57,993 nt of DNA, taken from positions 1-57,993 of the forward strand of contig CAYVKP010000005.1 in assembly GCA_964452165.1 (NCBI GenBank). Reading direction: 5' to 3'. Source of the stretch: an uncultured Gammaproteobacteria bacterium. Lineage in GTDB: Bacteria > Patescibacteriota > Microgenomatia > Levybacterales > GWA1-39-11. Within the stretch, counting starts at the first letter, position 1. The number at the start of each line of letters is the position of its first letter. The position numbers were made by a program, and so were the translations under genes. Below are positions 2,787-57,993 of the stretch, one piece after another. The notes beneath the pieces were generated by a model. That model ran no database searches. It was not told where the DNA came from and was given only the letters and a program-made list of their open reading frames with translations.

Positions 2787-2800
2787 CGCAAGCTACACGA

Positions 2801-2820: not shown

Positions 2821-2844
2821 ATTCAGATCGGGAGGAAAACGATC

Positions 2845-3981: not shown

Positions 3982-4000
3982 TCCAAAATCTCATAAAAAT

Positions 4001-16308: not shown

Positions 16309-16415
16309 GTGCTCTACCTCCTTCTTCTTTGTTCAGCGCTCAACGCAAGCGCTTTGAACCCAAGTTGTAAACGTAACGCGGCCCCTTCAGAGGGAACGCG
16401 GAGGGTGCTGCGTTC

Positions 16416-32453: not shown

Positions 32454-32526
32454 AAATTTATGGTAGGTAAAAAGCAAACGATTGTCAACCCCGCGCTTAA
32501 AATAAAGTCCTTTGTTGAATAAACAA

Positions 32527-32555
32527 TTGACAATTTGAAGCCACGGAAGTAAGAT
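32527..32555 (+). promoter_or_regulatory. Promoter TTGACA-N17-TAAGAT, 8 nt upstream of the ATG at 32564
   Basis: Consensus -35 box with exact 17-nt spacing. Confidence 0.5.
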
Positions 32556-32563
32556 AAATCGCT

Positions 32564-33361: not shown

Positions 33362-33364
33362 GAG

Positions 33365-38614: not shown

Positions 38615-38615
38615 A

Positions 38616-39611: not shown

Positions 39612-39683
39612 ATTAGCTTCCTATCTTACAGTATTTTTATTCCTGTGTGAAGAAGCTCTAGGCTATTCGCTAAATACTATTGG

Positions 39684-40667
39684 CTATTTGCTAGTATCGC
39701 AGGGGATAATTTTGTTTTTAGTCAAATAATTGAATAGATCATTAACAATCACCGTATACCCTTCCTTCGTTGGATGATTATCGTTGAGATGATAGAGATC
39801 GTCGCTATATATATCAGGGACTTTCTTATAGAAATAGGTATCCTTTCTAGCTTTTGAGAATTTGAGGATAAGCTCTTCATATTGCTTATTTAGTAAAGGA
39901 CTGGAAAACAGTACCAGTTTATTTTTGAAGTAATCATTTATTGAGGTCAGATGGTTATACTGGAGTGTCAAAAGATTTTTCTCCCCTCCGAGGGAATTTA
40001 TAACATTAGATTGCATTTTGGAATACAGATCGTTGAATAAACCAAAATTTTTCGGAGCCACATACTTTGAAAGGAAATCTTTCTGAGGCTGCTGTAATTC
40101 ATTAATTCTTCTAAAATCATCGCCTATAAGAAGCCAGAGAACTAAATCCGGATTATATTTTTGACCCCTCAACCTATATCTTTCAACAGTGTATTGTATA
40201 TCATAACCTTGAAGTCCAAGGTTTATTATTTCGAATTTAGAAATCTTTTTCGATGTGCATAATCTATTAAGTAATACTTCTAGCTGTGAGGGATAATTAT
40301 CTTTGGTATTAACATTTAACCCAAACGTGAAGGAGTCTCCAATTGTAGCTATTCTATATATACCTTTCTGCTTTTCTGTAGGGTAATTTTTTTCCTGGTT
40401 GAGACTATCTTTGTTTATGTGGAAGGATACATTTGAACCATAAGAATACCCTAGCGTCTGCAAGAATTTTGGATCTACACTCCATACAATATTAGGTTTT
40501 GGTTCGTAAAAATGCTTTAGGCCATAAACAGGGTTGTTAACTAAATATGCTAGGTTTAGAGGATTTAAGGATACCGTTGGTTCATTCTTTTTAAATATCG
40601 CAAAAACAAATGCAACAATGATTACTAACTCAAAGATAACAAGGTAGACAATAATTCTCTTCTTCAT
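39684..40667 (-). CDS. SGNH/GDSL-like membrane-anchored protein, paralog of 44718..45686
   Basis: N-terminal TM segment. IATIGDSFTFG (GDS block). The C-terminal block HPTKEGYTVIVNDLFNYLTKNKIIPC matches the paralog. Confidence 0.55.
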   Translation of the reverse strand: MKKRIIVYLVIFELVIIVAFVFAIFKKNEPTVSLNPLNLAYLVNNPVYGLKHFYEPKPNIVWSVDPKFLQTLGYSYGSNVSFHINKDSLNQEKNYPTEKQKGIYRIATIGDSFTFGLNVNTKDNYPSQLEVLLNRLCTSKKISKFEIINLGLQGYDIQYTVERYRLRGQKYNPDLVLWLLIGDDFRRINELQQPQKDFLSKYVAPKNFGLFNDLYSKMQSNVINSLGGEKNLLTLQYNHLTSINDYFKNKLVLFSSPLLNKQYEELILKFSKARKDTYFYKKVPDIYSDDLYHLNDNHPTKEGYTVIVNDLFNYLTKNKIIPCDTSK

Positions 40668-40772
40668 TTCTGCCTAGAGCTTACGTGAACAGAAGCAACT
40701 CTAGGCAAGTATTTATTATACAGGTTAAGGACTTAGCTATTTACCGGCTTTTGCCGCTCTATCCTCGAGGAT

Positions 40773-42500
40773 TTATTTTTGACGTGCGTTTACCCAGGCT
40801 TTCAGGACTTCCAAAACTGCAAAGAGTGCTGGTTTTGGTTTCAAATTATCATCAAACATGGTAGCATCAGCATCTGGAGAGTACAGTTTTGCGGTTTTTT
40901 GCGATTCTAGCCATGAATACTTATCTCCGGGAGTCCAAAAATCAATACTTTTTACTCCAAAGTCCAAAGCAAGTTGAGTTACCATTCTATAGACTTCTGC
41001 CTGCTTCTTGAGTCTATCCAGATCATCTTTTGGAAGGTATTTCAAGCTCACATCCATTTCTTTGATTCGAATAGGTCGCCCATAAGACTTCCATGTAGCA
41101 AGAAGTTCATCTGCTGAAGGTGGATTTGCTCCATCAAGATGCATCTCCAACCCCACTGTATCTACTAAAGGCCTGCCTTTATATGGTTGATTTAACTTAT
41201 CAACTACAGCTTTCGTACGTGCGTATCCTGCTCCCGATCTAGTCTCATTCTCTATGTCCATATATATCAACTCTATATCCGGATCAGTGTCCCTAGCCTC
41301 TTTGAAAAGTATCTCTGCAAGTTCCGGACCAATCGTACTTCGTAAAACGTCTGAACTGGAGTTGTTCAGATATTGAAACTCGCTTAATATGACCCACGAG
41401 CTTATTCTACCTTTGAAGTGAGTTATCGTATCGCGTACCCGTGCTTTCGTAATATCTATTAATTGGTCGCGAGAAATTTTTCCCTCCCTTACACCCTTAG
41501 TTACCCAATCAGGAACATCTTGACTGTATATCAGTGAGTGCCCATTAATTTTCATCCCATGTGCAATTAAGTAATCAACTGTTTTATCAGCTAAACCATA
41601 GTCTATAACCCCTGGTTGTTTTTCAACATTCTTCCAAGAAATATCATCAGCTAATGATCCAGACGTAAATTCCTTAGTCTTCATCGTGGCCAAATCTGGA
41701 AGAGTTGAGATGTTCTGATTGCTTATACTTGTTCCCATTTCTACTCCTCCTTTATTTGCCCAATAAGGAATGTGATTAGCTGGGTCGTCCTCTTCTTTTT
41801 TAGCGGGAGTCTCATTTTTTGCGGCTGGAGTCGGCTCTGCTGCTTTTGCTGCGGTGGGAGGAATCTGTGAGACATCGGGTTTGGCTGCTGCAGCCTGCGT
41901 TTGAACTATAGCGGGACTATCCGGCGTAGCAACTGCTTTGTTATCTGCTGCTCCACCAGCACAACCAACAAGAAAGGTTGTAGCTACTACTGGCCCTGCA
42001 TATTTTCCTACCCTTTTAAATTGGCGTTCTGCCCACTCGGCTATTCTATTTTGTTCTCTTCTATCTTTTTCCGAGGTTTTAGATTCAGTCTCAGCCGGTT
42101 TAGTGTTAGGCGCAAAAACTGTACCTTCGGGATATGGTTCTCTTCTGAAATCTTCCGTAGAAGGCTTGGCATTTGTTTGTGAATCTGGTCGATTGGTTTT
42201 AAGACCTGAGGCGGGAAATACCTCTTCTAACGCTTGCCCTAGCTTTATTCTGGCAAATTCTGCATTTGTATTTCTAATGATCTCATCTCTTATGGATTCT
42301 GGGCCATCCTGTGTGGGTTTTCGCTGGGCAAGAGCCTCGTTAAAATCAATAATATCGGCTGAAGGCCCATCTTTAAGGCCTCTCCTTTGGGATATAACAG
42401 ACTCTCTTCGCGCGTATTTTCTACCTGGACCTTCTATTTTACGGCCACCTATTGGAACTGCTCCCAAACCTGTTTCTTGTGGTGTTCTTTCTGCTGCCAT
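40773..42500 (-). CDS. Membrane-anchored GH10-like glycoside hydrolase with a long disordered N-terminus
   Basis: TM segment at about aa 170-190. The C-terminal TIM-barrel-like region carries the WVILSEF and IKEMDVS blocks, at positions analogous to WDVVNE and ITELD in GH10. Confidence 0.45.
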   Translation of the reverse strand: MAAERTPQETGLGAVPIGGRKIEGPGRKYARRESVISQRRGLKDGPSADIIDFNEALAQRKPTQDGPESIRDEIIRNTNAEFARIKLGQALEEVFPASGLKTNRPDSQTNAKPSTEDFRREPYPEGTVFAPNTKPAETESKTSEKDRREQNRIAEWAERQFKRVGKYAGPVVATTFLVGCAGGAADNKAVATPDSPAIVQTQAAAAKPDVSQIPPTAAKAAEPTPAAKNETPAKKEEDDPANHIPYWANKGGVEMGTSISNQNISTLPDLATMKTKEFTSGSLADDISWKNVEKQPGVIDYGLADKTVDYLIAHGMKINGHSLIYSQDVPDWVTKGVREGKISRDQLIDITKARVRDTITHFKGRISSWVILSEFQYLNNSSSDVLRSTIGPELAEILFKEARDTDPDIELIYMDIENETRSGAGYARTKAVVDKLNQPYKGRPLVDTVGLEMHLDGANPPSADELLATWKSYGRPIRIKEMDVSLKYLPKDDLDRLKKQAEVYRMVTQLALDFGVKSIDFWTPGDKYSWLESQKTAKLYSPDADATMFDDNLKPKPALFAVLEVLKAWVNARQK

Positions 42501-42805
42501 GTTTTTAGCTTAAAAACTATAAGCTGTTACCCTGATTTTCTCACTTTTCACAGCGTTTGTCAACAAAAACTCTGTAAGAAATCGAGGCTAAATTCATATG
42601 GTATACTAAATTCATGCTCAATAAGCTTGCCGAGGCAAAAGACTTGATAATTTTCTTCAAAAAGACCAACAAGCTTTACTTTATTCCCTTCATATTACTG
42701 CTCGTAATTTTTGGTCTTCTAGCTCTTTACGCCAGCATTTCCCCTGTCCCAATCTTCCTCTACCCTCTAATCTAACCCTGAGTAATATTGTGCTAAAATT
42801 ACGCT

Positions 42806-43399
42806 ATGAATTTATTGCTTCAAAGGGTCATTGCCTTGGTTGGATTAATACTTGCCTCTCCCCTACTTACCCTTCTCTTCTTCTTGGTAAAACTAGGCTC
42901 AAAGGGGCCTTTCATTTTTAAGCAAAAACGGGCCGGAAAGAATAAAAAACCGTTCACGATGTATAAAATCCGTACAATGGTTGAAGGAGCGGAAAAGCAT
43001 CAAACAAAATATCAGGGAATGAATGAAGCAGATGGACCCGTTTTTAAGATCAAAAATGACCCCCGTTACACTAAGATTGGCAAATTCTTGGCAAAGTCAG
43101 CAATTGACGAACTCCCGCAGCTTTGGAATGTGGCTCGCGGTGAAATGGCACTTGTTGGTCCGCGTCCCCTACCTATAAACGAGGCCAAAAAAGTTCCAAG
43201 CGAGTATAACAAACGCTTTTCTACTCTCCCTGGTATGACCTCCTTGTGGGTGGTTGGGGGACTGCACACGCTCAAATTCAAAAGGTGGATGGAGCTTGAC
43301 ACTGAGTATGCAAAGAGCAAATCTACGCTTCTTGATGCCAAGATTTTATTTCGGACCTTTATATTAGTACTGAAAATGGTTTTTGGCAGGAAGATCTAA
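42806..43399 (+). CDS. Polyprenyl-phosphate sugar phosphotransferase (bacterial sugar transferase family)
   Basis: FKQKRAGKNKKPFTMYKIRTM, then GPVFKIKNDPRYTKIGKFL, then DELPQLWNV..GEMALVGPRP. Confidence 0.9.
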   Translation: MNLLLQRVIALVGLILASPLLTLLFFLVKLGSKGPFIFKQKRAGKNKKPFTMYKIRTMVEGAEKHQTKYQGMNEADGPVFKIKNDPRYTKIGKFLAKSAIDELPQLWNVARGEMALVGPRPLPINEAKKVPSEYNKRFSTLPGMTSLWVVGGLHTLKFKRWMELDTEYAKSKSTLLDAKILFRTFILVLKMVFGRKI

Positions 43400-43908
43400 A
43401 TTTTGGTGATTTTGACTTCCACGGGAAGTTTGGTGGCGTTTTTAGCTAAATCAAATGTAGTTGTAAAAAGAATTGAGTCGCCGGCCTTTAGCTCGTCAAA
43501 ATCCATACTCTCCTCGTGATCCTTAACCAGCTTTGTGACGGTGACTTTTGTTGAAGCAGGAAAGTACCAAGTTGAGGAATAGCCTTCCAGCTTTATGCCT
43601 TTTTTGTAAAAAAAGCTTACCAATGCCATATCAGACCCTTTTATCACCTCTTGTATTTTTGTCTTGTCGGTAATAACCACTCGGGCAAATGTAACGTTAC
43701 GGTCTTTGTAGTTTTTATTGAGATAGGATAATTTGTCGGGATTTATACCGACAACTTTCGGTCCTTTTTTTGATGGAGTTGGTACGGTAATAGATTCTTC
43801 ATTGTTGGAAACCAAAGGCGTTGCTGGGTGATAAAATAAGAAAAAGACCTCAAGACCGATTACTGCAACCAAAGTTATAAACAGGGCAGTCAGAATTGTT
43901 TTGAGCAT
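43396..43908 (-). CDS. Hypothetical N-terminally anchored protein (170 aa)
   Basis: ORF with one TM segment. No domain recognised. Confidence 0.6.
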   Translation of the reverse strand: MLKTILTALFITLVAVIGLEVFFLFYHPATPLVSNNEESITVPTPSKKGPKVVGINPDKLSYLNKNYKDRNVTFARVVITDKTKIQEVIKGSDMALVSFFYKKGIKLEGYSSTWYFPASTKVTVTKLVKDHEESMDFDELKAGDSILFTTTFDLAKNATKLPVEVKITKI

Positions 43909-43911
43909 AAA

Positions 43912-44730
43912 TTAAGTATAAGCTTGTCGGGCAGAATCAGTCAACCTTTTCTTTTTTGAAGCGTAGAATATCAATGCTATAAGAAGAATTATAATTCCAA
44001 CCGAGTTTTCGATTCGTGAAGTAAGAAAAGAGGTCCTGAAAACAAATTCCTGGGTAAAATTCCAGGCCGCGTGAAAGCCGAAAATTCCCCACAGACTTCC
44101 CTGATCGATGTTAAGCCTGTAAAGTCCGCAAAAAATACCGAACAATATCATGGCCGTAAAAAGCGGAAGGTCAAGTCTGCCGGTAAAAAAATGGTAGAGA
44201 CCAAACAGTACCGCCGAGATAATAATCGCGGTACCGGACTTTACATAGGGGGTCAAAACCTTATTAAGGTAGCCTCGGAAAAGGATTTCTTCGCTTGCTG
44301 CCTGAACACTTGTTATAATAATGCCAGATAAAAATAATCTCAAGACCCCGCTGAAACTGAAGTTTTCCGTAAACTTAACATGGAAGACGATAGAATAAAA
44401 TACGATTAGTAAGCTTAAGCCGATTACTCCAACAGCAAATCCTCGTACCCATTTGATAATCCATTTTTGAGAGAACGAAATACCCAATCCCGAGAGTGTA
44501 AGCCCGTCCCAAAATTTTGCGAGTAGAAGCATGAATACGACACCTACAATTCTAGGTAAAATACGCAACATTATCCTCGTCAAGAAGTTGTTGTGAAGCT
44601 GTAAATGTACCACCCTAAAAACAAGAATTAGCAGGCTATCAACCCAGAAAAGAATAAGAACATAGATCAGGATCAATATGAGAATCTGGAGCGATAAATG
44701 AATTATGTCTTTTAACCTTAATTGGTGCAC
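43912..44730 (-). CDS. CPBP-family intramembrane glutamic endopeptidase (CAAX protease-like)
   Basis: The EEILFRGYL, FGLYH and HAAWN motifs. Confidence 0.8.
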   Translation of the reverse strand: MHQLRLKDIIHLSLQILILILIYVLILFWVDSLLILVFRVVHLQLHNNFLTRIMLRILPRIVGVVFMLLLAKFWDGLTLSGLGISFSQKWIIKWVRGFAVGVIGLSLLIVFYSIVFHVKFTENFSFSGVLRLFLSGIIITSVQAASEEILFRGYLNKVLTPYVKSGTAIIISAVLFGLYHFFTGRLDLPLFTAMILFGIFCGLYRLNIDQGSLWGIFGFHAAWNFTQEFVFRTSFLTSRIENSVGIIILLIALIFYASKKKRLTDSARQAYT

Positions 44731-45709: not shown

Positions 45710-46519
45710 ATGGATATTCTTTACGTTAAAATCGGTGGTTTCAACATCAAAATTACACTTACAAAAAGGCATGACGTTGAAGCGAATTTTGCATTTCTAC
45801 GTAACCGAGTTGAGATGGATCTACTGGTATATCTGCGAAGTTTTCTAGTTTTTGAAAAACCAAAAAGAATAGATTTTGAGATTGTTTTTGTGGACGAACC
45901 GGAAGTAAAACTTATAAGATTGCCAAAAACAAAGACGGAATACACCCCTCTTCTTGAACGAGTTTCAAATAAAAAAATTGTAACTTATTCACTAATCTCT
46001 TCATACCAGTTTGAAAGAATTTTAAAAAATGTAATATTTGATCTTTTGAAAACAAATGGCGGATTCGCCATACACGCATCAGCGGCCAGCGTTAAGGGAA
46101 AAGCCTATCTTTTTTTAGCAGAAAGTGGCGGCGGAAAATCAACGACAGTTGAATTACTAAATAACAAGTACCATATATTGAGCGATGACATAACTGCTAT
46201 TCGAAAGCTAAAATCGCGCTACTATGTATTTCAAACTCCTTTTGTAGAAAAAGCCTGGTGGATTAAGAAAAAACAAGATCTCTACGAAGTTGATAAGATC
46301 TTCTTCCTTAATAAATCTAAGGAATTTGATATTGTAAAAATTAATGATCAGGATAGAGCAAATGAGACTGTTCTTAATCAAATATATGCTGCTCAAGAAC
46401 CTGACGAGCGCACTCTTAAAAATGTGCTCGGATTTGTGAAGAAATTTAATAAATATCACGATCTTTATTTTGATAAGGATAGTAAGAAACTGGAGAAAGT
46501 AATTGAAAAATCAAAATGA
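45710..46519 (+). CDS. HPr-kinase-like (HprK-related) P-loop protein
   Basis: GGFAIHASAASVKGKAYLFLAESGGGKSTTV resembles the HprK C-terminal P-loop. Overlaps the PqqD-like gene by 4 nt. Confidence 0.55.
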   Translation: MDILYVKIGGFNIKITLTKRHDVEANFAFLRNRVEMDLLVYLRSFLVFEKPKRIDFEIVFVDEPEVKLIRLPKTKTEYTPLLERVSNKKIVTYSLISSYQFERILKNVIFDLLKTNGGFAIHASAASVKGKAYLFLAESGGGKSTTVELLNNKYHILSDDITAIRKLKSRYYVFQTPFVEKAWWIKKKQDLYEVDKIFFLNKSKEFDIVKINDQDRANETVLNQIYAAQEPDERTLKNVLGFVKKFNKYHDLYFDKDSKKLEKVIEKSK

Positions 46520-46767
46520 AGGTTAAAAAAGGCATTGTAACTCAAAAAAATGGTGCAAAGATTACGATTTTTGACGGTGAACATTCGGCGTTTTACAAGT
46601 TTAACGAAACCGCATCTTTGATTTTTGAAAAATTAAAGAAAGGATTAAGCAGGCAAGAAATCTTGGACATGATGGTTAACAAATACGATATTGCAAGAAA
46701 AACTGCTGAGAAAGACTTTGACCAACTCGTGAAAGAGATGAAATTACGTGGGATTATCTCAGATTAA
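46516..46767 (+). CDS. PqqD-family protein (candidate stand-alone RiPP recognition element)
   Basis: 83 aa. The FYKFNETASLIFEKLKKGLSRQEILDMMVNKYDI...DFDQLVKEMKLRGII pattern is typical of PqqD. Confidence 0.65.
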   Translation: MKVKKGIVTQKNGAKITIFDGEHSAFYKFNETASLIFEKLKKGLSRQEILDMMVNKYDIARKTAEKDFDQLVKEMKLRGIISD

Positions 46768-47975
46768 TTTTTTTTAATACTTCGGATAGTTACAAATACT
46801 ATTGCAGCCAGTACTTTTGGGTTCAAAAAGATAGTCATCTTACGCCAGAGAGGGCTTGGCGACAGAGAAAAAAGAAGCTCGAAGTGCTTACCTTTTTTTT
46901 CCGGATCATCGCTTCTGAAGATATCCAAACCCCTAAGGTAACTTTGAATTTGTTTAAGACTACTCTTCCCGGGTCTTATGCTTTCTATAAATTTACGATC
47001 AAAACTCAGGCTATAATATTTTTCCAAAATAAGGAAAACCGGATATACAAAATTTTTTAAATTGAACTCGGAAACGGTTTGCTCAACTTTTGCATAATCA
47101 ACGCCTCCAGCAATTATTTGGGCTATAAAGTCAAAGCGGTAGGTACCTTTGAAATGGTGTTTAAAAAGATGTAAACATAAAAAGATTAATAAATTTTCCT
47201 TGCTTGGAATGGCGAAATTCTCACCATTTACGTTGATCTCCACTCTCTCATTAAGGATCTTACGGGTAAGCCGGTCGACCAAATTGCCCGGATAGAGACT
47301 GTCCACGTTTCCCAGATGACTCATCAGAAAAGATGCCTGAGCGTGAATATCGAATATTATCAGGAAGCCTTTGAAGAATTTGTAGTAAGAAATCTCGGGA
47401 CTTTCCCTCACCTTTGTCCCGGTAACCGAAATCTCTTCTATCTGTTTGTAACCAAGTCGAGACATAATCCTGGCTACCTTGCTTAGGCTATTTTTATGAG
47501 TCAAGATATCGCAATCACGATAAACTCTACTGGGTTGTTTTCCGGCAAAATATAAATATAGAGGTAAGCCCTTTAAGAAAAGGTGGTTAATTTTCTGTCT
47601 TTCGAGCGCTTTTTTGACTTTTAGTATTTCTCCAAAATATAACGTTGACTGAATTAAATAAAAGCCTTCGATATCTATAATTTGCCCTTCTCTTTTTACT
47701 TTATAGACAGTTCCGATTACATTTCTTGGATAAATTTTTCCATCAGAGAAATAATTACTGTCGCCCCGAGTTATAAGGTATTTTTTTGTCTTGTAGATGA
47801 CTCTGTGGGTGAATACTCTCCTCTTTTTTTTAGCGCAAATAATATCGTTTACTTTAATACTGTCGAACTTTTTTTTCTTAAAATAAATTACATCCCCATC
47901 GGAAAAAAGAGGAGTCATGCTATTTCCGTATGTCTTGAGAACTGAAGTTTTTAATAGCCTGGACGTAACATTCAC
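46764..47975 (-). CDS. Fusion: S24/S26-type serine peptidase N-terminal domain plus an uncharacterised-nucleotidyltransferase-family domain
   Basis: YGNSMTPLFSDGDVIYFKK is a signal-peptidase/LexA-type GNSM block. The rest resembles the nucleotidyltransferase family found in lasso-type clusters (RDCDILTHKNSL..RLGY). Confidence 0.5.
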   Translation of the reverse strand: MNVTSRLLKTSVLKTYGNSMTPLFSDGDVIYFKKKKFDSIKVNDIICAKKKRRVFTHRVIYKTKKYLITRGDSNYFSDGKIYPRNVIGTVYKVKREGQIIDIEGFYLIQSTLYFGEILKVKKALERQKINHLFLKGLPLYLYFAGKQPSRVYRDCDILTHKNSLSKVARIMSRLGYKQIEEISVTGTKVRESPEISYYKFFKGFLIIFDIHAQASFLMSHLGNVDSLYPGNLVDRLTRKILNERVEINVNGENFAIPSKENLLIFLCLHLFKHHFKGTYRFDFIAQIIAGGVDYAKVEQTVSEFNLKNFVYPVFLILEKYYSLSFDRKFIESIRPGKSSLKQIQSYLRGLDIFRSDDPEKKGKHFELLFSLSPSPLWRKMTIFLNPKVLAAIVFVTIRSIKKN

Positions 47976-48007
47976 AGGGCTATTCTAACACAAAGTTTCG
48001 GAGAATC

Positions 48008-48187
48008 TTAAGTTGTGCAGCTATCGGAACTTGAGCAACCCGATCCGGTACATGATGTACAACTAGCCACAAAAGCGGGTGGTACAATTGCTAAACCGTC
48101 AAAAGAATCCATCATTCTCTTGTTTAAAAAGAAATTAATTTTTATTTTACTCACTTTAATCTCAGGCTTAACATATTTTTTTTTCAT
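48008..48187 (-). CDS. RiPP precursor peptide (59 aa) with a Cys/Ser/Thr-rich C-terminal core
   Basis: MKKKYVKPEIKVSKIKINFFLNKRMMDSFDGLAIVPPAFVASCTSCTGSGCSSSDSCTT. Lies directly downstream of the YcaO and SagB genes on the same strand. ATG at 48187 preferred over the TTG at 48202. Confidence 0.75.
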   Translation of the reverse strand: MKKKYVKPEIKVSKIKINFFLNKRMMDSFDGLAIVPPAFVASCTSCTGSGCSSSDSCTT

Positions 48188-48236
48188 ATTTTTTGAGTTC
48201 AAATCTATTTTATGATATGTAGAGTTTTTAAGTCAA

Positions 48237-49007
48237 TCACTTCTTTCTTTCACTCCTCTGCCCTACAGCAGCCAGATAAATTACTGTCTCCTCAGATGAA
48301 TTAACATCAATTAAACCGTTAACGTAATCATCTATATAATCGCCTATTGCGCACATCCCAAGATTGAGGGCCGATGCGAGTAGGTAAAAGTTTTGTGCAA
48401 GATGACCCGCCTCCTCAAGTATGAACCTATAGCCGCGTTCGCCGTATTTATTGGTATTTCTTTTAAAAATTGTTGTGATTATTATTAGACAAGCTGCTTG
48501 TCTGGCCCAGGGAAGAGATGTTATTTTTTTAACGGCTTCTTTGTCAAAATCAGCCAAATACTCTAGACTGTTATTCTTAACATAATAATGATATATTCCT
48601 TGAGTAAGCTTCGTATTCTGCGAGATCACGTAAACTTCCAGGGGGAATCTTGCTCCTCCTGAGGGGTAGAATCTCCTCTCCTTAAAATTATGTTTTGGAT
48701 TTATTCCGGCCGAATAATAAAGAAAACTGCTTAATTTTTTAAGATCAACTGGTTTTCTTGAAAACTTTCTTATCGACTCTCTGTTACCAAGAGCGTCTTT
48801 AATGGTCACATTTGGTAATTCCGGTTTTGGAAGTTTTATCTCGGGGAGTCTTGCATAGCCCTTGTAAAAAACCGTCTTCCATTCTTTCGGCCAAAAACGG
48901 CGATCCGCATTCTTATTTAATTTACTAAACTTAGTTTTAGGATGAAATTTCTCATAATCAAAGATGGGCTTTCCTAAAAGTTTCTCAAGATAATTATCGC
49001 GTTTCAT
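48237..49007 (-). CDS. SagB-type (nitroreductase-fold, FMN) azoline dehydrogenase
   Basis: RESIRKFSRKPV, then RFYPSGGARFPLEVYV, then GYRFILEEAGHLAQN. Overlaps the YcaO gene by 4 nt. Confidence 0.8.
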   Translation of the reverse strand: MKRDNYLEKLLGKPIFDYEKFHPKTKFSKLNKNADRRFWPKEWKTVFYKGYARLPEIKLPKPELPNVTIKDALGNRESIRKFSRKPVDLKKLSSFLYYSAGINPKHNFKERRFYPSGGARFPLEVYVISQNTKLTQGIYHYYVKNNSLEYLADFDKEAVKKITSLPWARQAACLIIITTIFKRNTNKYGERGYRFILEEAGHLAQNFYLLASALNLGMCAIGDYIDDYVNGLIDVNSSEETVIYLAAVGQRSERKK

Positions 49008-50263
49008 AAGAATGGGTGAGGAACAGGATTTACGTCTTGAAGTTTTTCACCAAAAAATGAGGCGACCTGTCTCAGTCTTTCCATGTTTAGAGACTTTTCT
49101 TTTTCACTTTCATACAAATATAGGGGCTCAAGATTTGGTATCAAAACCTTAACTGCAAAAAAATTAAACTTCTTCAGTTCATCAAGTGTTATGTCGATTG
49201 AGTAGACAGATCGATCGGTTTTTTTTAGTTTTTTTATTACTTCTGCGAGTTCTGTTTCAGTTGTGCCATTGAATGAGTCCAATTTAGCTGTAAAGTCTCC
49301 CGTGATCAAAAAGTTGATGTTCTCTATTGCGGGAGGCGCAATCCAAAGAGGTCCCCTTATCAGCGCGAAATTCTTGGGTTTGGGTTTATTTTCAAAGATG
49401 TCACCATTTTTTATCATATATTTCAAGACTATTCTCATCATAAAAGATTCGGTTATTGCACCTATAACAGCGTCTATTGCCCGCAGGCTGGTTTTAGCAC
49501 CAACTGAGACAGCGGGTCCTACTCCGGTCCTATCAATAACAACAGAGAGGAAAGACGGAACACCAATGTCTGTTGTTATATCAAGGACGTAGAGTTCAAG
49601 TTTATATCGTAAGCACTTATTGACGATTGCATTTATTGTTTTATTGTTAAGTTTATCGAGTCTAACCCTGGGGGGAGTAATACCTGCAAGATATATACTG
49701 GTGAATGAATCACGTTCAATAGCCTCGTAAATGGCGTTAAGTGTTGCGTGGTTGTGAGAAGAACCTCCCGCTGCCCCCGTACTATTTCTTGGATAATCAA
49801 GTGTTGGTTCGCCCTTAAAGAGTTTGTAACGCAAATAAATAAGCTGTGCCGGAAGCAGAACTTTTTTACCGTTCGTCAGATTCTGTCCCCAGACCCAACT
49901 CATTTTTTTATCTTTAATCTGATTGTCCTTTGAAAAATCCAGCAGGTTAATAAAATCTGAAGGATTTTTGGAAGATGGACGCTTCACGATTTGTTTTTTT
50001 TTGTAAAGTGCGAGAGAGAGTCTTTCCATGAGCTCAAATAAGCATTTTGAGAGTGCTGCTTCCGGTGAATCAAAGGAAAAGCCTCCACCTTCTGAGAATT
50101 TACCCCCCACATAACCCTTAAACTTTTTTTTGTCGGGCACAAGTCTTCCATCGAAGCGGAAAAATCCCGGCTCATCATAAAACTCTCCTCCTCGACGTAT
50201 ATCAACCTTTATTCCTTCTCTTGAGAGTTTGTTAATTAGAGATTTTATTTTAGAATAGTCCAT
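49004..50263 (-). CDS. YcaO-domain cyclodehydratase
   Basis: The LFELMERLSL and NSTGAAGGSSHNHATLNAIYEAIERDSF blocks are typical of YcaO. Confidence 0.8.
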   Translation of the reverse strand: MDYSKIKSLINKLSREGIKVDIRRGGEFYDEPGFFRFDGRLVPDKKKFKGYVGGKFSEGGGFSFDSPEAALSKCLFELMERLSLALYKKKQIVKRPSSKNPSDFINLLDFSKDNQIKDKKMSWVWGQNLTNGKKVLLPAQLIYLRYKLFKGEPTLDYPRNSTGAAGGSSHNHATLNAIYEAIERDSFTSIYLAGITPPRVRLDKLNNKTINAIVNKCLRYKLELYVLDITTDIGVPSFLSVVIDRTGVGPAVSVGAKTSLRAIDAVIGAITESFMMRIVLKYMIKNGDIFENKPKPKNFALIRGPLWIAPPAIENINFLITGDFTAKLDSFNGTTETELAEVIKKLKKTDRSVYSIDITLDELKKFNFFAVKVLIPNLEPLYLYESEKEKSLNMERLRQVASFFGEKLQDVNPVPHPFL

Positions 50264-50318
50264 GCAGATTGGTTAACTATATTACTATCCCAGACAGCAA
50301 AAGTAAACCGGGACTAGT

Positions 50319-52055
50319 TCAGTTTTCGCAGATATATTTTGGCAGCTTAATTGCATAGGATTTTGTATTTATTTTCGCATTATCCGGTGGAGGTATTTTT
50401 TTGTATATAATTCTTGCCTCAATGGTTTTAATTTTTTTGCTTCCATTGTGGTTGCCATTCCAAGTTTGACACAGGAAATAGGCGTAACCTCTTTGGACAT
50501 TAAATCTTTGTTGGGGACCAAAACTTAAGAAGAAATTTGCCCTGAGATAATTTCTCTGCATATAAGATGGGGTCGCGAGTACGTTTATTTTTGTTCCATC
50601 ATCAAACTCACCCTGAGCTTCATAAGACCAATTATATACCGGTGGAGCCGGAGCAAACATAGTCCATTTCTGGTTAACACCCAATGCGTATGTCAGAGTA
50701 AGGGGTGGCTTGTAACCAAAGTTTACACTATTAAGATTAACTAAGAAAATATATATGATAAAAAATAAAGCGATTAGGTTGAGTGGCCACGAAAAATCTA
50801 TCAACGTGTTTCTCTTGTTTTCATCTTGAGGAATAGAACAAATAGAATGCCTTCTCTTGGAAATAAAATTGTAAAATAGGTCGCCAAACTTAAATATTCC
50901 TGGAATGAAAGTGACCGGAAGAAAAATGAAAAGCATTGGCGAGGCTTTAAAAATGGGCACGAGTGCAGCAGAACGGAGAAATCGTCTACCCTTCCCGTCT
51001 TCTACGATCCAGGATTGTTCTTTATCCATAAGTTTTGAAAGTTTTGGGTCTTTCTGAGCCGGAATTATCTGGGCAGAGGGAAGGAGAAAGAATGTTTTAA
51101 GAACCCGGCACACCCAATGACATAATCCGCAGTCATGGTCGTAATATATTTTTAACTTAGGAACCTTATTTTCCAGAAAGTTGAATAAACGATCCCAAAA
51201 TAAGGTGGGGAGCAACCCAAAAAGTGAGACTATATCAATAAAAGGGAATATACCAAGTGCCATAGCTGCCTTAAAACCGAGATGCATGCCAGTCAAGAGA
51301 AATATAGCTAAAAGTCTTAGGTATGGAGTGTAAAAAGGGCTCAAAATAAGGAAGGGAGCTAAAATCTCAAGAAGACGAGTTGAATAGGTAATAAGAGACA
51401 GAACGTTTAGTGGTAAGTAGGCCAAGATACCTGCAAAGGGGGTTGCTAGAAGTTGAAAATGTACAGCGTAGTAAACTGCGCTATAGTCTTTATTCCACGC
51501 CGCACCAGTCTTAAGCATTGCGGCGAAAAAGTAGATAAAACAGATTTGCAGAATATATCCTGCAATCCCCAGGGAAAAAACTCTGTTTGGAAGACTTTTC
51601 AAACGAATACTATTCATGCTATCCAAAGAAAACCTTGCATTCCAGGGAACAAACATTCCCCAGAATAATAAAAGTCTCAATATATAATCTCCTCCCAAAA
51701 GAACCACTAAATTACGGTTTTGCAGTGAAAGAAGAAGAAGGAAAGATACAATTGTGACCAGCTTTGTTTTATACCCCACGAGAAGAAGGAGCGCAAAAAA
51801 AGCGGCGACACCAAAAAGAAACGCTTCAAATTGCCAAGATCCACTTAAGGCATGAAGTGATATTGGATGCCAACCGTATGAGGCAAAGATATATTTTCTA
51901 GGTAGGAATCCTTGATCCGTATAAAACTCCACAATAGATGTAGCGCGAAGCCCAAGGTCTGCCAAAATAAGGAGAGCCACGCCTACCCTCATTATCGCCA
52001 GAGACCTGAGATCTGTTGAGAACATATCTTTAAGCTTAGCCTTCAATAAACTCAT
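50319..52055 (-). CDS. Fusion: HTTM (vitamin-K-carboxylase-like) polytopic domain plus a DCC-type thiol-disulfide oxidoreductase motif
   Basis: The N-terminal DLRSLAIMRVGVALLILADL and following TM helices are HTTM-like. YYDHDCGLCHWVCRVL is a DCC (DUF393)-type CxxC motif at about aa 305. Confidence 0.6.
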   Translation of the reverse strand: MSLLKAKLKDMFSTDLRSLAIMRVGVALLILADLGLRATSIVEFYTDQGFLPRKYIFASYGWHPISLHALSGSWQFEAFLFGVAAFFALLLLVGYKTKLVTIVSFLLLLSLQNRNLVVLLGGDYILRLLLFWGMFVPWNARFSLDSMNSIRLKSLPNRVFSLGIAGYILQICFIYFFAAMLKTGAAWNKDYSAVYYAVHFQLLATPFAGILAYLPLNVLSLITYSTRLLEILAPFLILSPFYTPYLRLLAIFLLTGMHLGFKAAMALGIFPFIDIVSLFGLLPTLFWDRLFNFLENKVPKLKIYYDHDCGLCHWVCRVLKTFFLLPSAQIIPAQKDPKLSKLMDKEQSWIVEDGKGRRFLRSAALVPIFKASPMLFIFLPVTFIPGIFKFGDLFYNFISKRRHSICSIPQDENKRNTLIDFSWPLNLIALFFIIYIFLVNLNSVNFGYKPPLTLTYALGVNQKWTMFAPAPPVYNWSYEAQGEFDDGTKINVLATPSYMQRNYLRANFFLSFGPQQRFNVQRGYAYFLCQTWNGNHNGSKKIKTIEARIIYKKIPPPDNAKINTKSYAIKLPKYICEN

Positions 52056-52120
52056 TTATAAATTAGTATAACCAAAACCCACGCATTCATGGTAATTAAA
52101 GTGATAAAATCTACCAGCGA

Positions 52121-53935
52121 ATGGAAAAAATCATAGAAAAAATTAGAGATACAAGAGAGACTATCGGGGTTGCAAAAAGACTCCTTGCGCTTGTCTGGCA
52201 ATACGATAAAAGGGTTTTCTTATTGCATGCTGTTGCAATTGCCGCTCCCGCAGTCATCCCCTTCATCAATGCCTACATTTATAAGCTAATAATCGATTTG
52301 ATTGTCCATGCTGCAACAACTCACGCGTTCAATTATCATGCGCTGTATATTCTTCTTGCCGCAAGATTTATTACTCTTCTTGTCCAATACTCCGCTTTCT
52401 CGCTTCAATCTTTTACCGAACTTCTTATTTGGTCCAGAATTCCAATTTTTCTTTACCAATTAGTGCTCAACAAGCTTGCAAATCTTGACGTTGAGTATTT
52501 TGAAAACAGCGCGTTCCGGGACAACCTGCAGAAGGTAAAGGAGAGCTATGTTTGGATGCCGCTTAATATGTTCTCTGCTCTTTTCTACACTTTTCAGAGC
52601 TTACTTCAGATGACCGTTGCTTTTGTTGCCATTGCAACGCTTAATCTTGGACTTGCGGTTGGAATAATTGTTGCCGCTCTTCCCTCTTTTATCAACCAGG
52701 TTTACTATTCAAAAACCTTGTGGGGGGTTTGGAGCGAACATTCACCGGATCGTAAAAAATTCTGGTATCTATCGGAGCTAATTCAAGACAGAAATGGAAT
52801 AAAGGAGACTAAAATTTTTGGAACTGCCAAAAAATTCCTCTCAGAAATTGTTGGCATTCAGAAAAAACTTGCAAATGAAAATCTACTAGTTGGGAGAAAG
52901 AGGCTTAGAAATTCCGTGCTACTCAACTTTGTAGCAACTTTTATCTATATCTTTATTGAGGGATTTGTTGCGTTTTTGACTATTGCTGGAAGAATTACTC
53001 TTGGAAGTCTTTCCTACTTCACCTTCGTTATATGGAATTTTGAAAACGGAGTTTCAGGATTCTTTAACAATGTCTCAAGAGTATTTGACCAAAGCCTTTA
53101 TGTAAAAGATATTTTTACAGTTCTTGATATGCCAGCCAAAATCCAATTACCCAAAAGTGGTATCAAAATCAAAGCGAGTAAGCCACCAAAGATTGAATTT
53201 GTGGGTGTTACATTTGCTTATCCAGGTGCCTCCTCTCCTACTCTCCGAGACTTTTCATTAACCATAGAACCGGGTGAAAAAATTGCATTTGTTGGAGAAA
53301 ACGGCGCCGGAAAAACAACGATAATAAAACTTTTAGCTCGTTTTTATGATGTTACGGAAGGACAAATTTTAGTCAATGGAAATGATATTCGGCAGCTTGA
53401 TCTTGTCTCTTGGCACCAATCATTGGGCGTAATCTTCCAAGACTTTTTAAAGTACGAATATACGCTGGCTGAAAATATTCATTTTGGAAAAGTTTATGAA
53501 GACTTCAATCTATCAAAAATCAAAGAGGCCGCCGGATTTGCCGGTGTTGATAAATTTGCGAATGACTTTCCGCAAGGCTATCAACAAATGCTGGGACTTA
53601 CTTTTGAAGGAGGGCGGGAATTGTCTTTGGGCCAGTGGCAAAAAGTAGCTTTGGCAAGAGCTTTCCTGCGGGACGCACCAGTTTTAGTTTTGGACGAACC
53701 AACCGCATCAATTGACGCAAAAGCTGAGAAAGAAATATTTGATAAGGTTGAAAAGCTTGGACGCGACAAAACCGTTATCATCATCTCCCACCGCTTCTCA
53801 ACGGTCAGGAATGCGGACAAAATCTATGTGATTGATCAAGGAAAAGTTGTTGAATCAGGAAGTCACAAATCATTACTTACCGAAAAGGGAATCTACGCAA
53901 AGTTATTCAACTTGCAAGCCGAAAGATACAAATAA
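52121..53935 (+). CDS. ABC exporter, fused permease and ATPase (MsbA/ABCB-like)
   Basis: Six TM helices. Walker A GENGAGKTT. Signature LSLGQWQ. Walker B VLVLDEPT. Confidence 0.9.
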   Translation: MEKIIEKIRDTRETIGVAKRLLALVWQYDKRVFLLHAVAIAAPAVIPFINAYIYKLIIDLIVHAATTHAFNYHALYILLAARFITLLVQYSAFSLQSFTELLIWSRIPIFLYQLVLNKLANLDVEYFENSAFRDNLQKVKESYVWMPLNMFSALFYTFQSLLQMTVAFVAIATLNLGLAVGIIVAALPSFINQVYYSKTLWGVWSEHSPDRKKFWYLSELIQDRNGIKETKIFGTAKKFLSEIVGIQKKLANENLLVGRKRLRNSVLLNFVATFIYIFIEGFVAFLTIAGRITLGSLSYFTFVIWNFENGVSGFFNNVSRVFDQSLYVKDIFTVLDMPAKIQLPKSGIKIKASKPPKIEFVGVTFAYPGASSPTLRDFSLTIEPGEKIAFVGENGAGKTTIIKLLARFYDVTEGQILVNGNDIRQLDLVSWHQSLGVIFQDFLKYEYTLAENIHFGKVYEDFNLSKIKEAAGFAGVDKFANDFPQGYQQMLGLTFEGGRELSLGQWQKVALARAFLRDAPVLVLDEPTASIDAKAEKEIFDKVEKLGRDKTVIIISHRFSTVRNADKIYVIDQGKVVESGSHKSLLTEKGIYAKLFNLQAERYK

Positions 53936-54760
53936 TTAACCTATCGCCAAATCTAAAAGCAAAGCCCTAACATGCACCTGATGTGAATGTGGATTAAACT
54001 TCGTATGAGTTCTTTCTCTGACATCTTTTACATGAGCTGGGACGGACTTATCTTCCATTACTACTTCTGCCACTAACCTATCGAGCGCAGAGGGAGAGCT
54101 ACCCGAATCCAACCTCCTGCTATAAAATCCTCTGAGAACAGCAACCTCGTATGGTGGCAGTGTCCGAAGAGTATAACCTCCATTTACATGCCTCTCAAAA
54201 CTTTCGTAAAAGCTTGCTATGGTCTGCCCGTCCCACTCAGACCTAACTTTTGCAAGGGATTCGGGTTGTCCATGTCCACGTGAATAATCGGAGAGATAAT
54301 CTTTCATCGAAACAGCAAAATGGGCAACAAGCTCAGGGTCTTCCTCTCCCTTTTCAGCCATTACTATCTCTGCTCTCATGGCATTAAAACACTCTTCAAC
54401 TGCAGTTATACTCGCTGAAAATGGTTTACCCAAATCTTCCATAAAACTGGTGGATCTCATGCGGCCGGTTTTTTGATTTTGTCTTCTCGAGCTTTCCCCG
54501 AGTGAAACGAGTCTAAAATAAAAATAATCCTTATCCATAACCGTTCCGCCTTCAATAACCGCGGCCATTTGAATTCTTCTTTCAATAAGTTCTCCTTTAT
54601 AAGTTCCGTCTGCGATTTGATCTATGGCTTTAAAACTGACACTAACTCCTCTTGCCGCATATTGGGCGGAGCGAGTTCTAGAGTCAACTGAACTATCGGG
54701 TATTGGTAACCCAAACTTTCTTGACGTCTCTGAAATTGACATAGAAGCTGATTCTAGCAA
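53936..54760 (-). CDS. Hypothetical protein (274 aa)
   Basis: Long ORF with intermediate GC. No domain recognised. Confidence 0.6.
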   Translation of the reverse strand: MLESASMSISETSRKFGLPIPDSSVDSRTRSAQYAARGVSVSFKAIDQIADGTYKGELIERRIQMAAVIEGGTVMDKDYFYFRLVSLGESSRRQNQKTGRMRSTSFMEDLGKPFSASITAVEECFNAMRAEIVMAEKGEEDPELVAHFAVSMKDYLSDYSRGHGQPESLAKVRSEWDGQTIASFYESFERHVNGGYTLRTLPPYEVAVLRGFYSRRLDSGSSPSALDRLVAEVVMEDKSVPAHVKDVRERTHTKFNPHSHQVHVRALLLDLAIG

Positions 54761-54842
54761 AAACTGAAGCTATATTCAACTATAGGATTGTTTTAAACTT
54801 TGTAATGGGCGCTACATACGGGTTATGGTATAATTGCCGCAA

Positions 54843-55538
54843 ATGCAAGGAAACAACCTAAACCTTCGCAAAAGATTGGATCGAATTTGGGAAGAACCCA
54901 ACTTCTCATCCTTTTTTCAAAAATATACCAAGCGCTCTCCTATGTCTATAAAGGCCGGAAGAACGGTGTTTTTTGAAGAAGACGAACCCAGAAAACTTTA
55001 TTTCATAAAAAAGGGTTTCATAAAACTTTTCAGAACCTCGCCTGAAGGAAGAAGTACGGTAGTCTATCTTTACGGTCCGGGGAGCATTCTGGCGCTCCGC
55101 GCTCTAACGTCCCACGATAAAAAACTTAAACACACGGCTGAGGCGATGACAAACGTTGAGATCATAACAATTCCTGAAGGATCTTACTTTGACACAATTT
55201 CAGAAAATCCGGAATATATAATCGATCTACTCCACGCCTTCATTGAAAGACTCAACTTTACAGAGAGAAAGCTTGAGGGATTTATTTTAACCGATGCAAC
55301 CGCCCGAACCGCCAATTTTCTATTCGACGTCACCGAAAGATTTGGTGTAAAAAGAGAAAAGGGAATTGAAATTCCTCTACCCCTCACTCATCAAACAATA
55401 GCAGAGTTTGTTGGAGCATTCAGAGAGACTGTAACCGTTGCGATGAACAGACTCCGCAAAGAGGGAATTTTGGACGATAAACGGGGCAAAATAACGGTTT
55501 TGAGTCTTAAGAAGCTTAAGCAACAGGCATTGATTTAA
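54843..55538 (+). CDS. Crp/Fnr-family transcriptional regulator
   Basis: cNMP-binding-like beta-roll (FFEEDEPRKLYFIKKGFIKLF) and a C-terminal HTH (THQTIAEFVGAFRETVTVAMNRLRKEGIL). TGgTATAAT lies at 54826-54834, so the ATG at 54843 is preferred over the TTG at 54834. Confidence 0.8.
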   Translation: MQGNNLNLRKRLDRIWEEPNFSSFFQKYTKRSPMSIKAGRTVFFEEDEPRKLYFIKKGFIKLFRTSPEGRSTVVYLYGPGSILALRALTSHDKKLKHTAEAMTNVEIITIPEGSYFDTISENPEYIIDLLHAFIERLNFTERKLEGFILTDATARTANFLFDVTERFGVKREKGIEIPLPLTHQTIAEFVGAFRETVTVAMNRLRKEGILDDKRGKITVLSLKKLKQQALI

Positions 55539-56967: not shown

Positions 56968-57083
56968 CCCCCGGCCTCGACTTATTGTCCCGGGTCCTCC
57001 CCAGTATCGTGGGCGCTGGCATGTTTCACTTCTCTGTTCGGAATGGGAAGAGGTGGTACCATGACGCTCTAAAGACCGAAAGG
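56968..57083 (-). rRNA. rrf: 5S ribosomal RNA
   Basis: The reverse complement contains CCCATTCCGAACAGAGAAGTGAAAC and the rest of the 5S layout. Helix I closes between the two ends. The ends are approximate to within a few nt. Confidence 0.85.

Positions 57084-57139: not shown

Positions 57140-57993
<854 letters not shown>

Follow-up and report, generated by a model that had tools for sequence, protein, structure and literature searches.

We analysed a 57,993-nt window of contig CAYVKP010000005.1 (assembly GCA_964452165.1), in which the piece at positions 45710-53935 holds a probable locus for a peptide made by the ribosome and modified after translation (RiPP) with a YcaO protein and a SagB-type dehydrogenase. 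The source genome belongs to the Microgenomates group of the Candidate Phyla Radiation (CPR), as judged from the relatives of YcaO, those of a peptidase-nucleotidyltransferase fusion encoded in the same locus, and a contig scan made with the latter. Members of the CPR, or Patescibacteria, have tiny genomes and are thought to be poor in secondary metabolism. An earlier first-pass annotation of this DNA had described a CPR-like genome with a RiPP locus, in which a YcaO of the thiazole/oxazole-modified microcin (TOMM) type stands next to a SagB dehydrogenase, and both points were borne out here. The coordinates, strands and lengths of all open reading frames (ORFs) it listed were reproduced by the ORF list. 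Its domain calls for YcaO, SagB, PqqD, DCC, NTP_transf_5, S26 and an HPr-kinase-like protein were upheld by profile searches or alignments, and that for HTTM at the family level.

On the plus strand, the locus carries an HPr-kinase-like P-loop protein of the ScmC family (269 aa, 45710-46519), a predicted Ser/Thr kinase of the precursor, whose gene overlaps by 4 nt (46516-46519) that of a PqqD-type RiPP recognition element (RRE; 83 aa, 46516-46767). The minus strand encodes a fusion of an S26 peptidase with a nucleotidyltransferase (NTase) of the NTP_transf_5 family (403 aa, 46764-47975), the precursor peptide (59 aa, 48008-48187), the SagB-type FMN dehydrogenase (256 aa, 48237-49007), an unfused YcaO of the TOMM or azoline type (419 aa, 49004-50263), which shares 4 nt with the SagB gene (49004-49007), and an HTTM-DCC fusion membrane protein (578 aa, 50319-52055). 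An ATP-binding cassette (ABC) exporter composed of permease and ATPase (604 aa, 52121-53935) follows on the plus strand; the plus-strand flanks named earlier, i.e. the kinase-like gene, the PqqD gene and the exporter, are all present.

For comparison, related loci were numbered from L001 on. Eighty-four of them were selected through YcaO, 79 came from a scan of contigs with the alignment of the S26-NTase fusion, and 167 were compared for peripheral genes. The contig scan was performed on species-representative genomes, and frequencies were counted on the 33 loci whose sequence spans 18 kb or more, referred to below as well-flanked.

The precursor peptide and the YcaO-SagB pair

Judged from its conservation and bipartite composition, the 59-aa ORF is a genuine precursor, as the first-pass annotation had proposed. 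A similar small ORF was found in each of the three closest YcaO loci (L001-L003), in one of them uncalled, and these ORFs were used to seed a hidden Markov model (HMM) of the family. The HMM matched the window at one place only, the 59-aa ORF itself. It detected the family in 16 of the 84 YcaO-selected loci, which confirms the conservation of the small ORF beside YcaO, in three of four context loci fetched via the S26-NTase fusion (L085, L087 and L088) and in 28 of the 79 loci from the contig scan, giving a total of more than 40 related loci. No second small ORF rich in Cys, Ser and Thr was revealed in the window cluster by the ORF list or the precursor HMM.

The leader covers residues 1-41 (48065-48187), with the motif KYVKPEI at residues 4-10 and an invariant Ala41 at its end. 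The predicted core comprises residues 42-59, SCTSCTGSGCSSSDSCTT (48011-48064), and 14 of the 17 residues that follow Ser42 (CTSCTGSGCSSSDSCTT) are Cys, Ser or Thr. Across the family (alignment A3) the leader follows the pattern K-Y-x-K-P-x-I-x-x-K-K-I-K-x-x-F-F-L…D-S-F…[aliphatic, V/L/I]-x-Ala, in which Tyr is invariant and Pro nearly so, and is followed by a hypervariable core. Composition and junction statistics were obtained from 15 distinct precursors of L001-L088 and the window. Leaders contain 22% Lys+Arg, 10% Cys+Ser+Thr and 3% Gly, and cores 2% Lys+Arg, 45% Cys+Ser+Thr and 18% Gly. At the leader/core junction, P1 is Ala in all 15 precursors and P3 is aliphatic in 13. Type I signal peptidases obey a -3/-1 cleavage rule; the combination of Ala at P1 and an aliphatic residue at P3 fits this rule and therefore matches the S26 domain encoded beside the precursor. 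The interpretation of the leader as a Sec signal peptide was rejected, the segment being highly charged along its whole length and the S26 domain lacking a membrane anchor. A promoter-like site, TTGACT-18-TAAAAT (48207-48236, minus strand), lies 20 nt 5' of the precursor ATG; it was recovered by a consensus scan with 10 of 12 matches and is a consensus match alone.

Unusual members of the precursor family were observed elsewhere. In L005 (5870-6904), a family leader and a short Cys-containing core are fused to Hint/intein-like domain(s) (C-F-x…V-H-N), for which NCBIfam reported intein N- and C-terminal splicing regions. The same leader-core-Hint fusions, with one or two Hint domains, are encoded in L095 (1728-2327), L111 (3456-4037), L131 (2088-2690) and L162 (6713-7303); Hint autoprocessing could free the peptide as a thioester or pass it to another molecule. 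Locus L132, which has no YcaO, carries tandem precursors (137-511 and 533-925) with the family leader and long GGYYGQ-repeat cores that are not rich in Cys, Ser or Thr. Furthermore, L066 (12069-12587) encodes a 172-aa member with the leader, a Cys-rich core (SCSSCGSCGCAACGSCRSCPPCS) and a C-terminal extension of about 110 aa, which had no NCBIfam match.

Family searches placed both enzymes of the pair above their cut-offs. YcaO matched PF02624 with 151 bits (cut-off 25.7) over profile positions 6-325 of 325, and SagB matched TIGR03605 with 144 bits (cut-off 78.4); the narrower TOMM_cyclo_SagD score of YcaO, which is below its own cut-off, is weighed further below. YcaO belongs to a clade of about 100 proteins, mostly metagenomic, the named members of which are Patescibacteria, and a contig search with this single protein returned no confirmed relative. 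In keeping with an ATP-binding YcaO cyclodehydratase, Glu and Arg residues are invariant across 26 homologues (alignment A1). The protein ends in PVPHPFL, a PxPxP motif whose form x-P-H-P-F-L is nearly invariant within the clade; PxPxP has been described as the canonical motif of YcaOs that form azolines (PMC12338566). The AF2 model (pLDDT 90.9) had the cyanobactin heterocyclase LynD as its best structural match, followed by MusD, MjYcaO and TruD, and also matched McbD. Relatives of SagB in the PDB are CyaGox, a SagB-type dehydrogenase and McbC, with CyaGox and McbC being azoline oxidases, and SagB adjoins YcaO in 75 of 84 loci.

The first-pass annotation had seen neither an E1/ThiF-like partner protein nor an RRE fused to YcaO, and this was supported. 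Among the 10 cluster proteins, no match to TIGR03603, TIGR03882 or any ThiF family was found. A home-made HMM derived from E1-like halves in fused TOMM proteins, which stands for one partner type, gave nothing in the window (best E = 1) and was positive in L037 (E = 8e-13). In the AF2 model, residues 1-65 of YcaO form a clade-specific N-terminal domain of one helix and four strands with an invariant D-E-P, and this domain is not a winged-helix RRE. No TfuA is present in the cluster.

The kinase, PqqD and peptidase-nucleotidyltransferase module

The HPr-kinase-like protein is a member of the Pfam family ScmC (PF27840) by precomputed assignment. Its score against TIGR04249 (E = 9e-9, 35 bits, cut-off 125) makes it a distant member of that family and not an equivalog. 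Residues H122, G142-K143-(S)T145 and D159-D160, which correspond to the core of HPr kinase/phosphorylase (HPrK/P), are invariant or nearly so in 25 homologues. A search of the PDB with the single sequence returned only P-loop noise and a weak HPrK match (E = 0.15). The family profile (alignment A2) matched the lasso precursor kinase BsfK with 48 bits across the catalytic core, and the catalytic block is of the same type as in BsfK (HGSAV…GRSGAGKST…ADD).

PqqD matched PF05402 with 46 bits, and its best NCBIfam match was lasso_PqqD; its profile matched the lasso protein BsfB1 with 38 bits. The leader motif IYKKPQL of BsfA aligns with KYxKPxI, represented in the window by KYVKPEI. BsfB1 is reported to enhance phosphorylation by BsfK and to assist leader removal (PMC10368454). 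The stand-alone PqqD had been named as the sole recognisable leader binder of the cluster, and this assignment was supported; its candidacy as a dedicated partner of YcaO was downgraded, since its occurrence follows that of ScmC and the S26-NTase fusion. It should be added that L086 (5902-7047) encodes a 381-aa fusion of a QueC-like PP-loop ATPase with PqqD beside a stand-alone PqqD and ScmC, in a YcaO/SagB locus.

The S26-NTase fusion consists of an N-terminal S26 domain of the ER/archaeal (SEC11/SipW) type (approximately 47676-47975) and a C-terminal NTP_transf_5 domain (approximately 47013-47651). The former scored 51.5 bits against TIGR02228, just below the cut-off of 51.85. Its boxes GNSMTP, THRV and RGDSNYFSD align with SGSMEP, VHRV and KGDNNAVDD of human SEC11A, including the catalytic Ser, His and Asp; across 36 homologues, S19, H57, D72 and D78 show no or almost no variation. 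No membrane anchor was found in this domain, the catalytic Ser being residue 19 with no hydrophobic segment ahead of it. The NTase domain matched PF14907 with 78 bits, and its residues G-x(17)-DxD and D-x-H are invariant in the same alignment. In Foldseek searches with the AF2 model of the fusion (pLDDT 89.9), the NTase domain resembled the O-nucleotidylyltransferases LnuA and ANT(2'')-Ia and the S26 domain resembled LexA, SipA and SEC11A. More than 110 full-length homologues of the fusion were found, all of them in Patescibacteria.

By sequence comparison, the window kinase, RRE and leader motif match the kinase, B1 and leader parts of phosphorylated lasso peptide systems. In lasso clusters, PqqD is accompanied by HPr-kinase homologues and an "uncharacterised nucleotidyltransferase". 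Kinase and NTase lead to phospho-glycosylated pseudomycoidin, and in some cases the lasso leader peptidase and the NTase form one fusion protein (PMC8498205; PMC7533575). With the clusters of paeninodin, pseudomycoidin and Bradymonas bsf (K, B1 and N genes), the window shares the HPr-kinase-like core, the discrete PqqD RRE, the Y-x-x-P-x-L/I near the leader N-terminus and a PF14907-type NTase fused to a predicted leader peptidase. It differs from them in having no lasso cyclase and no B2 transglutaminase-type protease, in that the NTase is joined to a Ser/His peptidase of the S26 type, in a core without the Gly1…Asp/Glu ring pattern, and in an invariant Ala at P1 in place of the lasso Thr(-2). 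No domain of a lasso cyclase (asparagine-synthetase-like) or of a B2 peptidase was detected in the cluster or the other scanned window proteins, and the locus was therefore rejected as a lasso-peptide cluster. With the SynChlorMet cassette (TIGR04249), the locus has in common an ScmC-family protein paired with a PqqD-like protein, and radical SAM enzymes occur beside the module in L088. The window differs from this cassette in its distant ScmC and in the absence of a pair of PqqE-like radical SAM/SPASM enzymes; none of the scanned window proteins gave a Radical_SAM match.

The gene set recurs, with its order shuffled, in 20 other loci found through YcaO (21 with the window), and YcaO, ScmC and PqqD are present in all four contexts chosen via the S26-NTase fusion. 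This recurrence far exceeds chance, and the maintenance of content under a shuffled order argues for functional linkage; of the gene order looked for in relatives, content was retained and order was not. The scan with the fusion alignment returned 132 matches, the titles of which name Roizmanbacteria, Gottesmanbacteria, Levybacteria, Beckwithbacteria and Microgenomates. In the 33 well-flanked loci, PqqD was present in 29, ScmC in 28, the precursor and the p170 protein described below in 19 each, the phosphoglycosyl transferase Bac_transf in 14, YcaO in 13, SagB in 12 and HTTM-DCC in 2. ScmC and PqqD were as common in loci without YcaO as in those with it. Among the 84 YcaO-selected loci, just the closest 16-20 have ScmC, PqqD, the S26-NTase fusion and the precursor family; the remaining ones contain an M16 peptidase, radical SAM enzymes and other Cys-rich precursors. 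Since most CPR YcaO-SagB pairs are without PqqD, the latter travels with the kinase and the peptidase and not with YcaO. The counts in the 33 loci identify ScmC, PqqD, the S26-NTase fusion and the precursor as a constant module and YcaO/SagB as optional. The first-pass annotation had regarded these genes as an accessory set of YcaO, and the relation is to be reversed: they form the constant core in Microgenomates, with YcaO in only 13 of 33 loci. In the explanation that we favour, the kinase/RRE/peptidase-NTase module is the ancestral constant and YcaO/SagB a plug-in of about 40% of the related species.

Several related loci deserve a separate mention. In L088 (Candidatus Roizmanbacteria, GCA_012798265.1), positions 2006-4120 and their neighbours hold the ScmC/PqqD/S26-NTase/Bac_transf module and a precursor with the same leader family, together with a 704-aa YcaO carrying a fused SagC-like domain (NCBIfam) and three radical SAM enzymes; SagB is absent. 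This gene set indicates that the module combines with different core-modifying enzymes. A larger CPR YcaO-SagB branch (L018, L021, L038, L042-L044 and others, 24 loci; also L033, L034, L041, L052, L062 and L078) has an M16 (HxxEH) peptidase and no kinase/PqqD module. Some loci of this branch contain radical SAM enzymes and membrane-anchored precursors with tails extremely rich in Cys, Asp and Gly. The branch is probably the cluster type of Sharrar et al. 2020 (PMC7298704). Many module-bearing records of metagenome-assembled genomes (L090, L094, L096 and others) are titled 'uncultured Gammaproteobacteria bacterium', which seems to be a placeholder or a taxonomic error; L090 and L086 represent one and the same contig (CAZYWG010000004.1), whose gene context is typical of Microgenomates.

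Membrane protein, exporter and surroundings

In the HTTM-DCC protein, the DCC domain was recognised as DCC1-like (39.8 bits) with a CGLC motif. HTTM was undetected in the window protein alone (Pfam at E <= 10; PDB), and NCBIfam searches with the homologues of L001 and L002 were likewise negative. It was recovered at the family level: 10 of 30 homologues matched Pfam HTTM (PF05090), and the family profile matched the membrane domain of human gamma-carboxylase (GGCX) with E = 8.6e-5, K182 being aligned to the Lys of vkKLDADW, a conserved Lys. The family is general and very large (more than 6,600 representative clusters), and most of it has no relation to RiPP loci. Its presence in only 3-4 related loci (L001, L002 and L165) makes it an optional, lineage-specific extra. 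The fusion reported earlier is real, as an optional member of the cluster. With SdpA/SdpB of Bacillus subtilis and bacterial HTTM-DCC proteins it shares a multi-pass HTTM-type membrane domain with the conserved Lys, a thiol-disulfide oxidoreductase domain of the DCC type with CxxC and a neighbouring gene for a Cys-containing exported peptide, and differs from SdpA/SdpB in being a single fused polypeptide with an extra C-terminal domain; the SdpB match is weak (23 bits). The ABC exporter is without a C39 peptidase domain, its matches beginning at about position 150 of peptidase-containing profiles, and a separate leader peptidase is therefore needed. Its close orthologues (E < 1e-220) were found in 8 related loci.

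Upstream of the kinase gene, a membrane-anchored protein of 170 aa (p170; 43396-43908, minus strand) was followed with its own family HMM. It occurs in 11 YcaO-selected loci, in addition to the 19 of 33 fusion-selected ones, and often lies directly upstream of the precursor in related loci; no Pfam or NCBIfam match was obtained for it. The adjacent small phosphoglycosyl transferase Bac_transf (197 aa, 42806-43399, plus strand; PF02397, 191 bits) is possibly associated with the cluster, and adjoins or overlaps the PqqD or NTase gene in L001, L002, L016/17, L086, L087 and L088. Between p170 and the kinase gene, a CPBP (Rce1-like) protease is present at 43912-44730 (PF02517, 62 bits) as described earlier. 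The immunity role suggested for it was rejected for want of comparative support, since none of the 167 related loci carries a homologue. On the other side, a 274-aa ORF (53936-54760) has no homologue in any of these 167 loci, and a possibly associated CRP/FNR-type regulator (54834-55538, plus strand; cNMP_binding and HTH_Crp_2) has close orthologues flanking the cluster only in the closest loci, L001 and L086/L090.

The region 30532-43399 next to the cluster is an envelope-glycan neighbourhood with two Wzy_C proteins, a sulfatase-PAPS_reduct fusion, RGP, GH10, a GDSL-like protein and Bac_transf. It is syntenic across diverged Microgenomates (window compared with L002, L086 and L088), WecG also being found in it.

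Other features of the window were recorded as well. A 1004-aa ORF (10943-13957) equals in length a called gene of L088 (lengths were compared, not sequences). Three islands (875-2786, 6406-8928 and 15529-18269) have 58-62% GC in a background of 35-43%; their genes code for proteins that are membrane-anchored or secreted and for which hardly any family matches were obtained, apart from a SAP domain in one of 840 aa. This pattern suggests recent horizontal acquisition or a chimeric assembly. At 20099-22284, the genes of a KaiC/RadA-like AAA ATPase, which has a zinc ribbon at its N-terminus, and of a PIN-domain protein overlap by 4 nt; this may be a pair of the defence or toxin type unrelated to the cluster. 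The edge of the window carries, on the minus strand, a 5S rRNA gene and the 3' end of a 23S rRNA gene (56969-57080 and 57142-57993), and no tRNA genes were found across the 58 kb.

Proposed pathway, alternatives and meaning

We consider it probable that the region is a RiPP biosynthetic cluster of a family spread over Microgenomates-group CPR and that it operates as follows. PqqD would bind the leader via KYxKPxI, the counterpart of the lasso YxxPxL, and present the peptide to the enzymes. YcaO with ATP would turn Cys, Ser and Thr residues in the core SCTSCTGSGCSSSDSCTT into azolines by cyclodehydration, acting without an E1/ThiF-type partner, via either PqqD or its own clade-specific N-terminal domain, and SagB would oxidise the azolines to thiazoles and (methyl)oxazoles. 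ScmC would phosphorylate a core Ser or Thr, and the NTase domain would then attach a nucleotidyl or sugar group there, in the manner of phospho-glycosylated lasso peptides. The S26 domain would cut the leader after Ala41, the ABC transporter would export the product, and HTTM-DCC may oxidise the remaining thiols of the exported peptide. The likely product is an exported azole peptide, possibly phosphorylated or nucleotidylated, with its leader cut after the invariant Ala. Azole formation and leader cleavage are the strongest steps of this scheme; the weakest are the chemistry of kinase and NTase and the part that PqqD would play for YcaO.

A number of points weigh against this pathway. Gene identities, conservation of catalytic residues, precursor architecture and co-occurrence were seen by sequence and comparison, and all the modifications are what we infer from them. 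To our knowledge, the characterised azoline-forming YcaOs require an E1-like or Ocin-ThiF-like partner, and there is none in the cluster. YcaO scored 170 bits against TOMM_cyclo_SagD, below the cut-off of 219, and its nearest solved relative by single-sequence search is the thioamide-forming YcaO of M. jannaschii (MJ1094). The use of PqqD by YcaO is speculative, because PqqD co-varies with the kinase/peptidase module and not with YcaO. S26 peptidases usually work at the membrane on Sec substrates, and we know of no precedent for a cytoplasmic leader peptidase among them. Unlike the substrates of paeninodin-type kinases, the cores have no conserved C-terminal Ser, and their C-termini are not conserved. 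Moreover, the Tyr-Pro-Ile motif of the leader is short, and mutation of the leader motif of BsfA had little effect on phosphorylation (PMC10368454). Finally, part of the co-occurrence, that of Bac_transf and p170, could reflect synteny and not function.

It is possible, though we are doubtful, that the product is not an antibiotic and is instead a conserved phospho- or glyco-peptide of the cell envelope or of host interaction, belonging to a surface-glycan locus; this would be compatible with the proposed chemistry. The module occurs in at least 132 species-representative genomes of one lineage, the surroundings with Bac_transf, Wzy_C, GH10, GDSL, RGP, WecG and sulfatase recur in the window, L002, L086 and L088, Bac_transf adjoins or overlaps the PqqD or NTase gene in many loci, and no conserved immunity gene was found, CPBP included. 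However, a hypervariable core behind a conserved leader typifies RiPPs that diversify and are linked to conflict, the closest relatives carry a dedicated ABC exporter, and the synteny may stem from shared ancestry.

That two independent systems merely lie side by side, the precursor belonging to ScmC/PqqD/S26-NTase only and YcaO/SagB acting on another substrate, appears unlikely. The module is without YcaO in 15 of the 28 ScmC-containing well-flanked loci, and about 60 of the 84 CPR YcaO-SagB loci show no module but other precursors together with an M16 peptidase, as two separate systems would predict. Yet in loci having both, the genes are interleaved in shuffled order, and the precursor usually lies directly 3' of SagB (L002 and L013) or after p170 (L009, L012, L016, L028 and L085). 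The cores are rich in Cys, Ser and Thr, as used by azole synthetases, and the cluster offers no other small ORF of this kind.

We regard it as quite improbable that YcaO installs thioamides or amidines, or is a MusD-like ATP-dependent peptidase, with the nitroreductase-fold protein in some other role. The missing E1/ThiF-type partner, the TOMM_cyclo_SagD score below cut-off, MJ1094 as the nearest solved sequence and MusD among the top structural matches point in this direction. Against it stand the absence of TfuA, the 4-nt overlap with a SagB that exceeds the TIGR03605 cut-off and is paired with YcaO in 75 of 84 loci, the PxPxP-type C-terminus, LynD as the top structural match, and a TOMM profile score well above the 66 bits of methan_mark_1. 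Very improbable, lastly, is a role of ScmC and PqqD as a scaffold or activator replacing the E1-like partner of YcaO, with ScmC being no peptide kinase: the two are translationally coupled and an RRE-bearing partner is otherwise missing, but they are equally frequent in loci without YcaO, they persist in L088, where YcaO already has its fused SagC-like domain, and the HPr-kinase His, P-loop and Asp-Asp of ScmC are invariant in a family that matches a proven peptide kinase.

The proposed azole pathway is best placed against the known clusters for linear azol(in)e-containing peptides (LAPs) and TOMMs. In CPR, 110 LAP-type clusters of YcaO and nitroreductase, with or without a peptidase, were reported in 93 genomes (Sharrar et al. 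2020, PMC7298704). The first-pass annotation had presented the locus as an atypical RiPP pathway in CPR; the locus is real, and a "LAP-like locus in CPR" as such is already known from that work. The window shares with LAP/TOMM clusters, those of CPR included, a PxPxP-type YcaO, an adjacent SagB, a leader-core precursor rich in Cys, Ser and Thr and an ABC exporter, and with the CPR clusters the same bacterial radiation. It differs in that YcaO has neither an E1-like (SagC/McbB) or Ocin-ThiF-like partner nor a fused RRE, in a predicted leader peptidase of the S26 type and not M16, C39 or CPBP, in the extra kinase/RRE/NTase module, and in the clade-specific N-terminal domain of YcaO of about 65 aa. 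Our literature search, which was incomplete and leaves an earlier description possible, found no paper on a partner-less YcaO or on an S26-type leader peptidase fused to an NTase, none on a lasso-type kinase/RRE/leader module on a non-lasso scaffold or its Microgenomates-wide distribution, and none on PqqD with CPR or on YcaO with HPr kinase and PqqD.

As a tentative proposal, which as a whole may well not hold, ScmC, PqqD, the anchor-less S26-NTase and the KYxKPxI precursor may represent an undescribed RiPP class of at least 132 Microgenomates species representatives. Its defining steps would be leader-guided Ser/Thr phosphorylation, nucleotidyl or glycosyl transfer and cytoplasmic leader removal of the signal-peptidase type, and its lineage-specific plug-ins would be partner-less YcaO with SagB, fused E1-YcaO with radical SAM enzymes, and Hint fusions. 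If this is true, the window YcaO forms azolines without an E1/ThiF partner, using a discrete lasso-type RRE or a novel N-terminal domain.

For RiPP enzymology, the locus offers three testable departures: an azoline-type YcaO without E1/ThiF partner, a signal-peptidase-fold enzyme as cytoplasmic leader peptidase with a matching -3/-1 motif, and a tailoring set of lasso kinase, RRE and nucleotidyltransferase moved to a non-lasso scaffold. As only a small number of short genes is involved, reconstitution of the whole pathway in E. coli could be possible. For the organisms themselves, a peptide-maturation system kept in more than 100 Microgenomates species with hypervariable cores likely matters for epibiont competition or host interaction.

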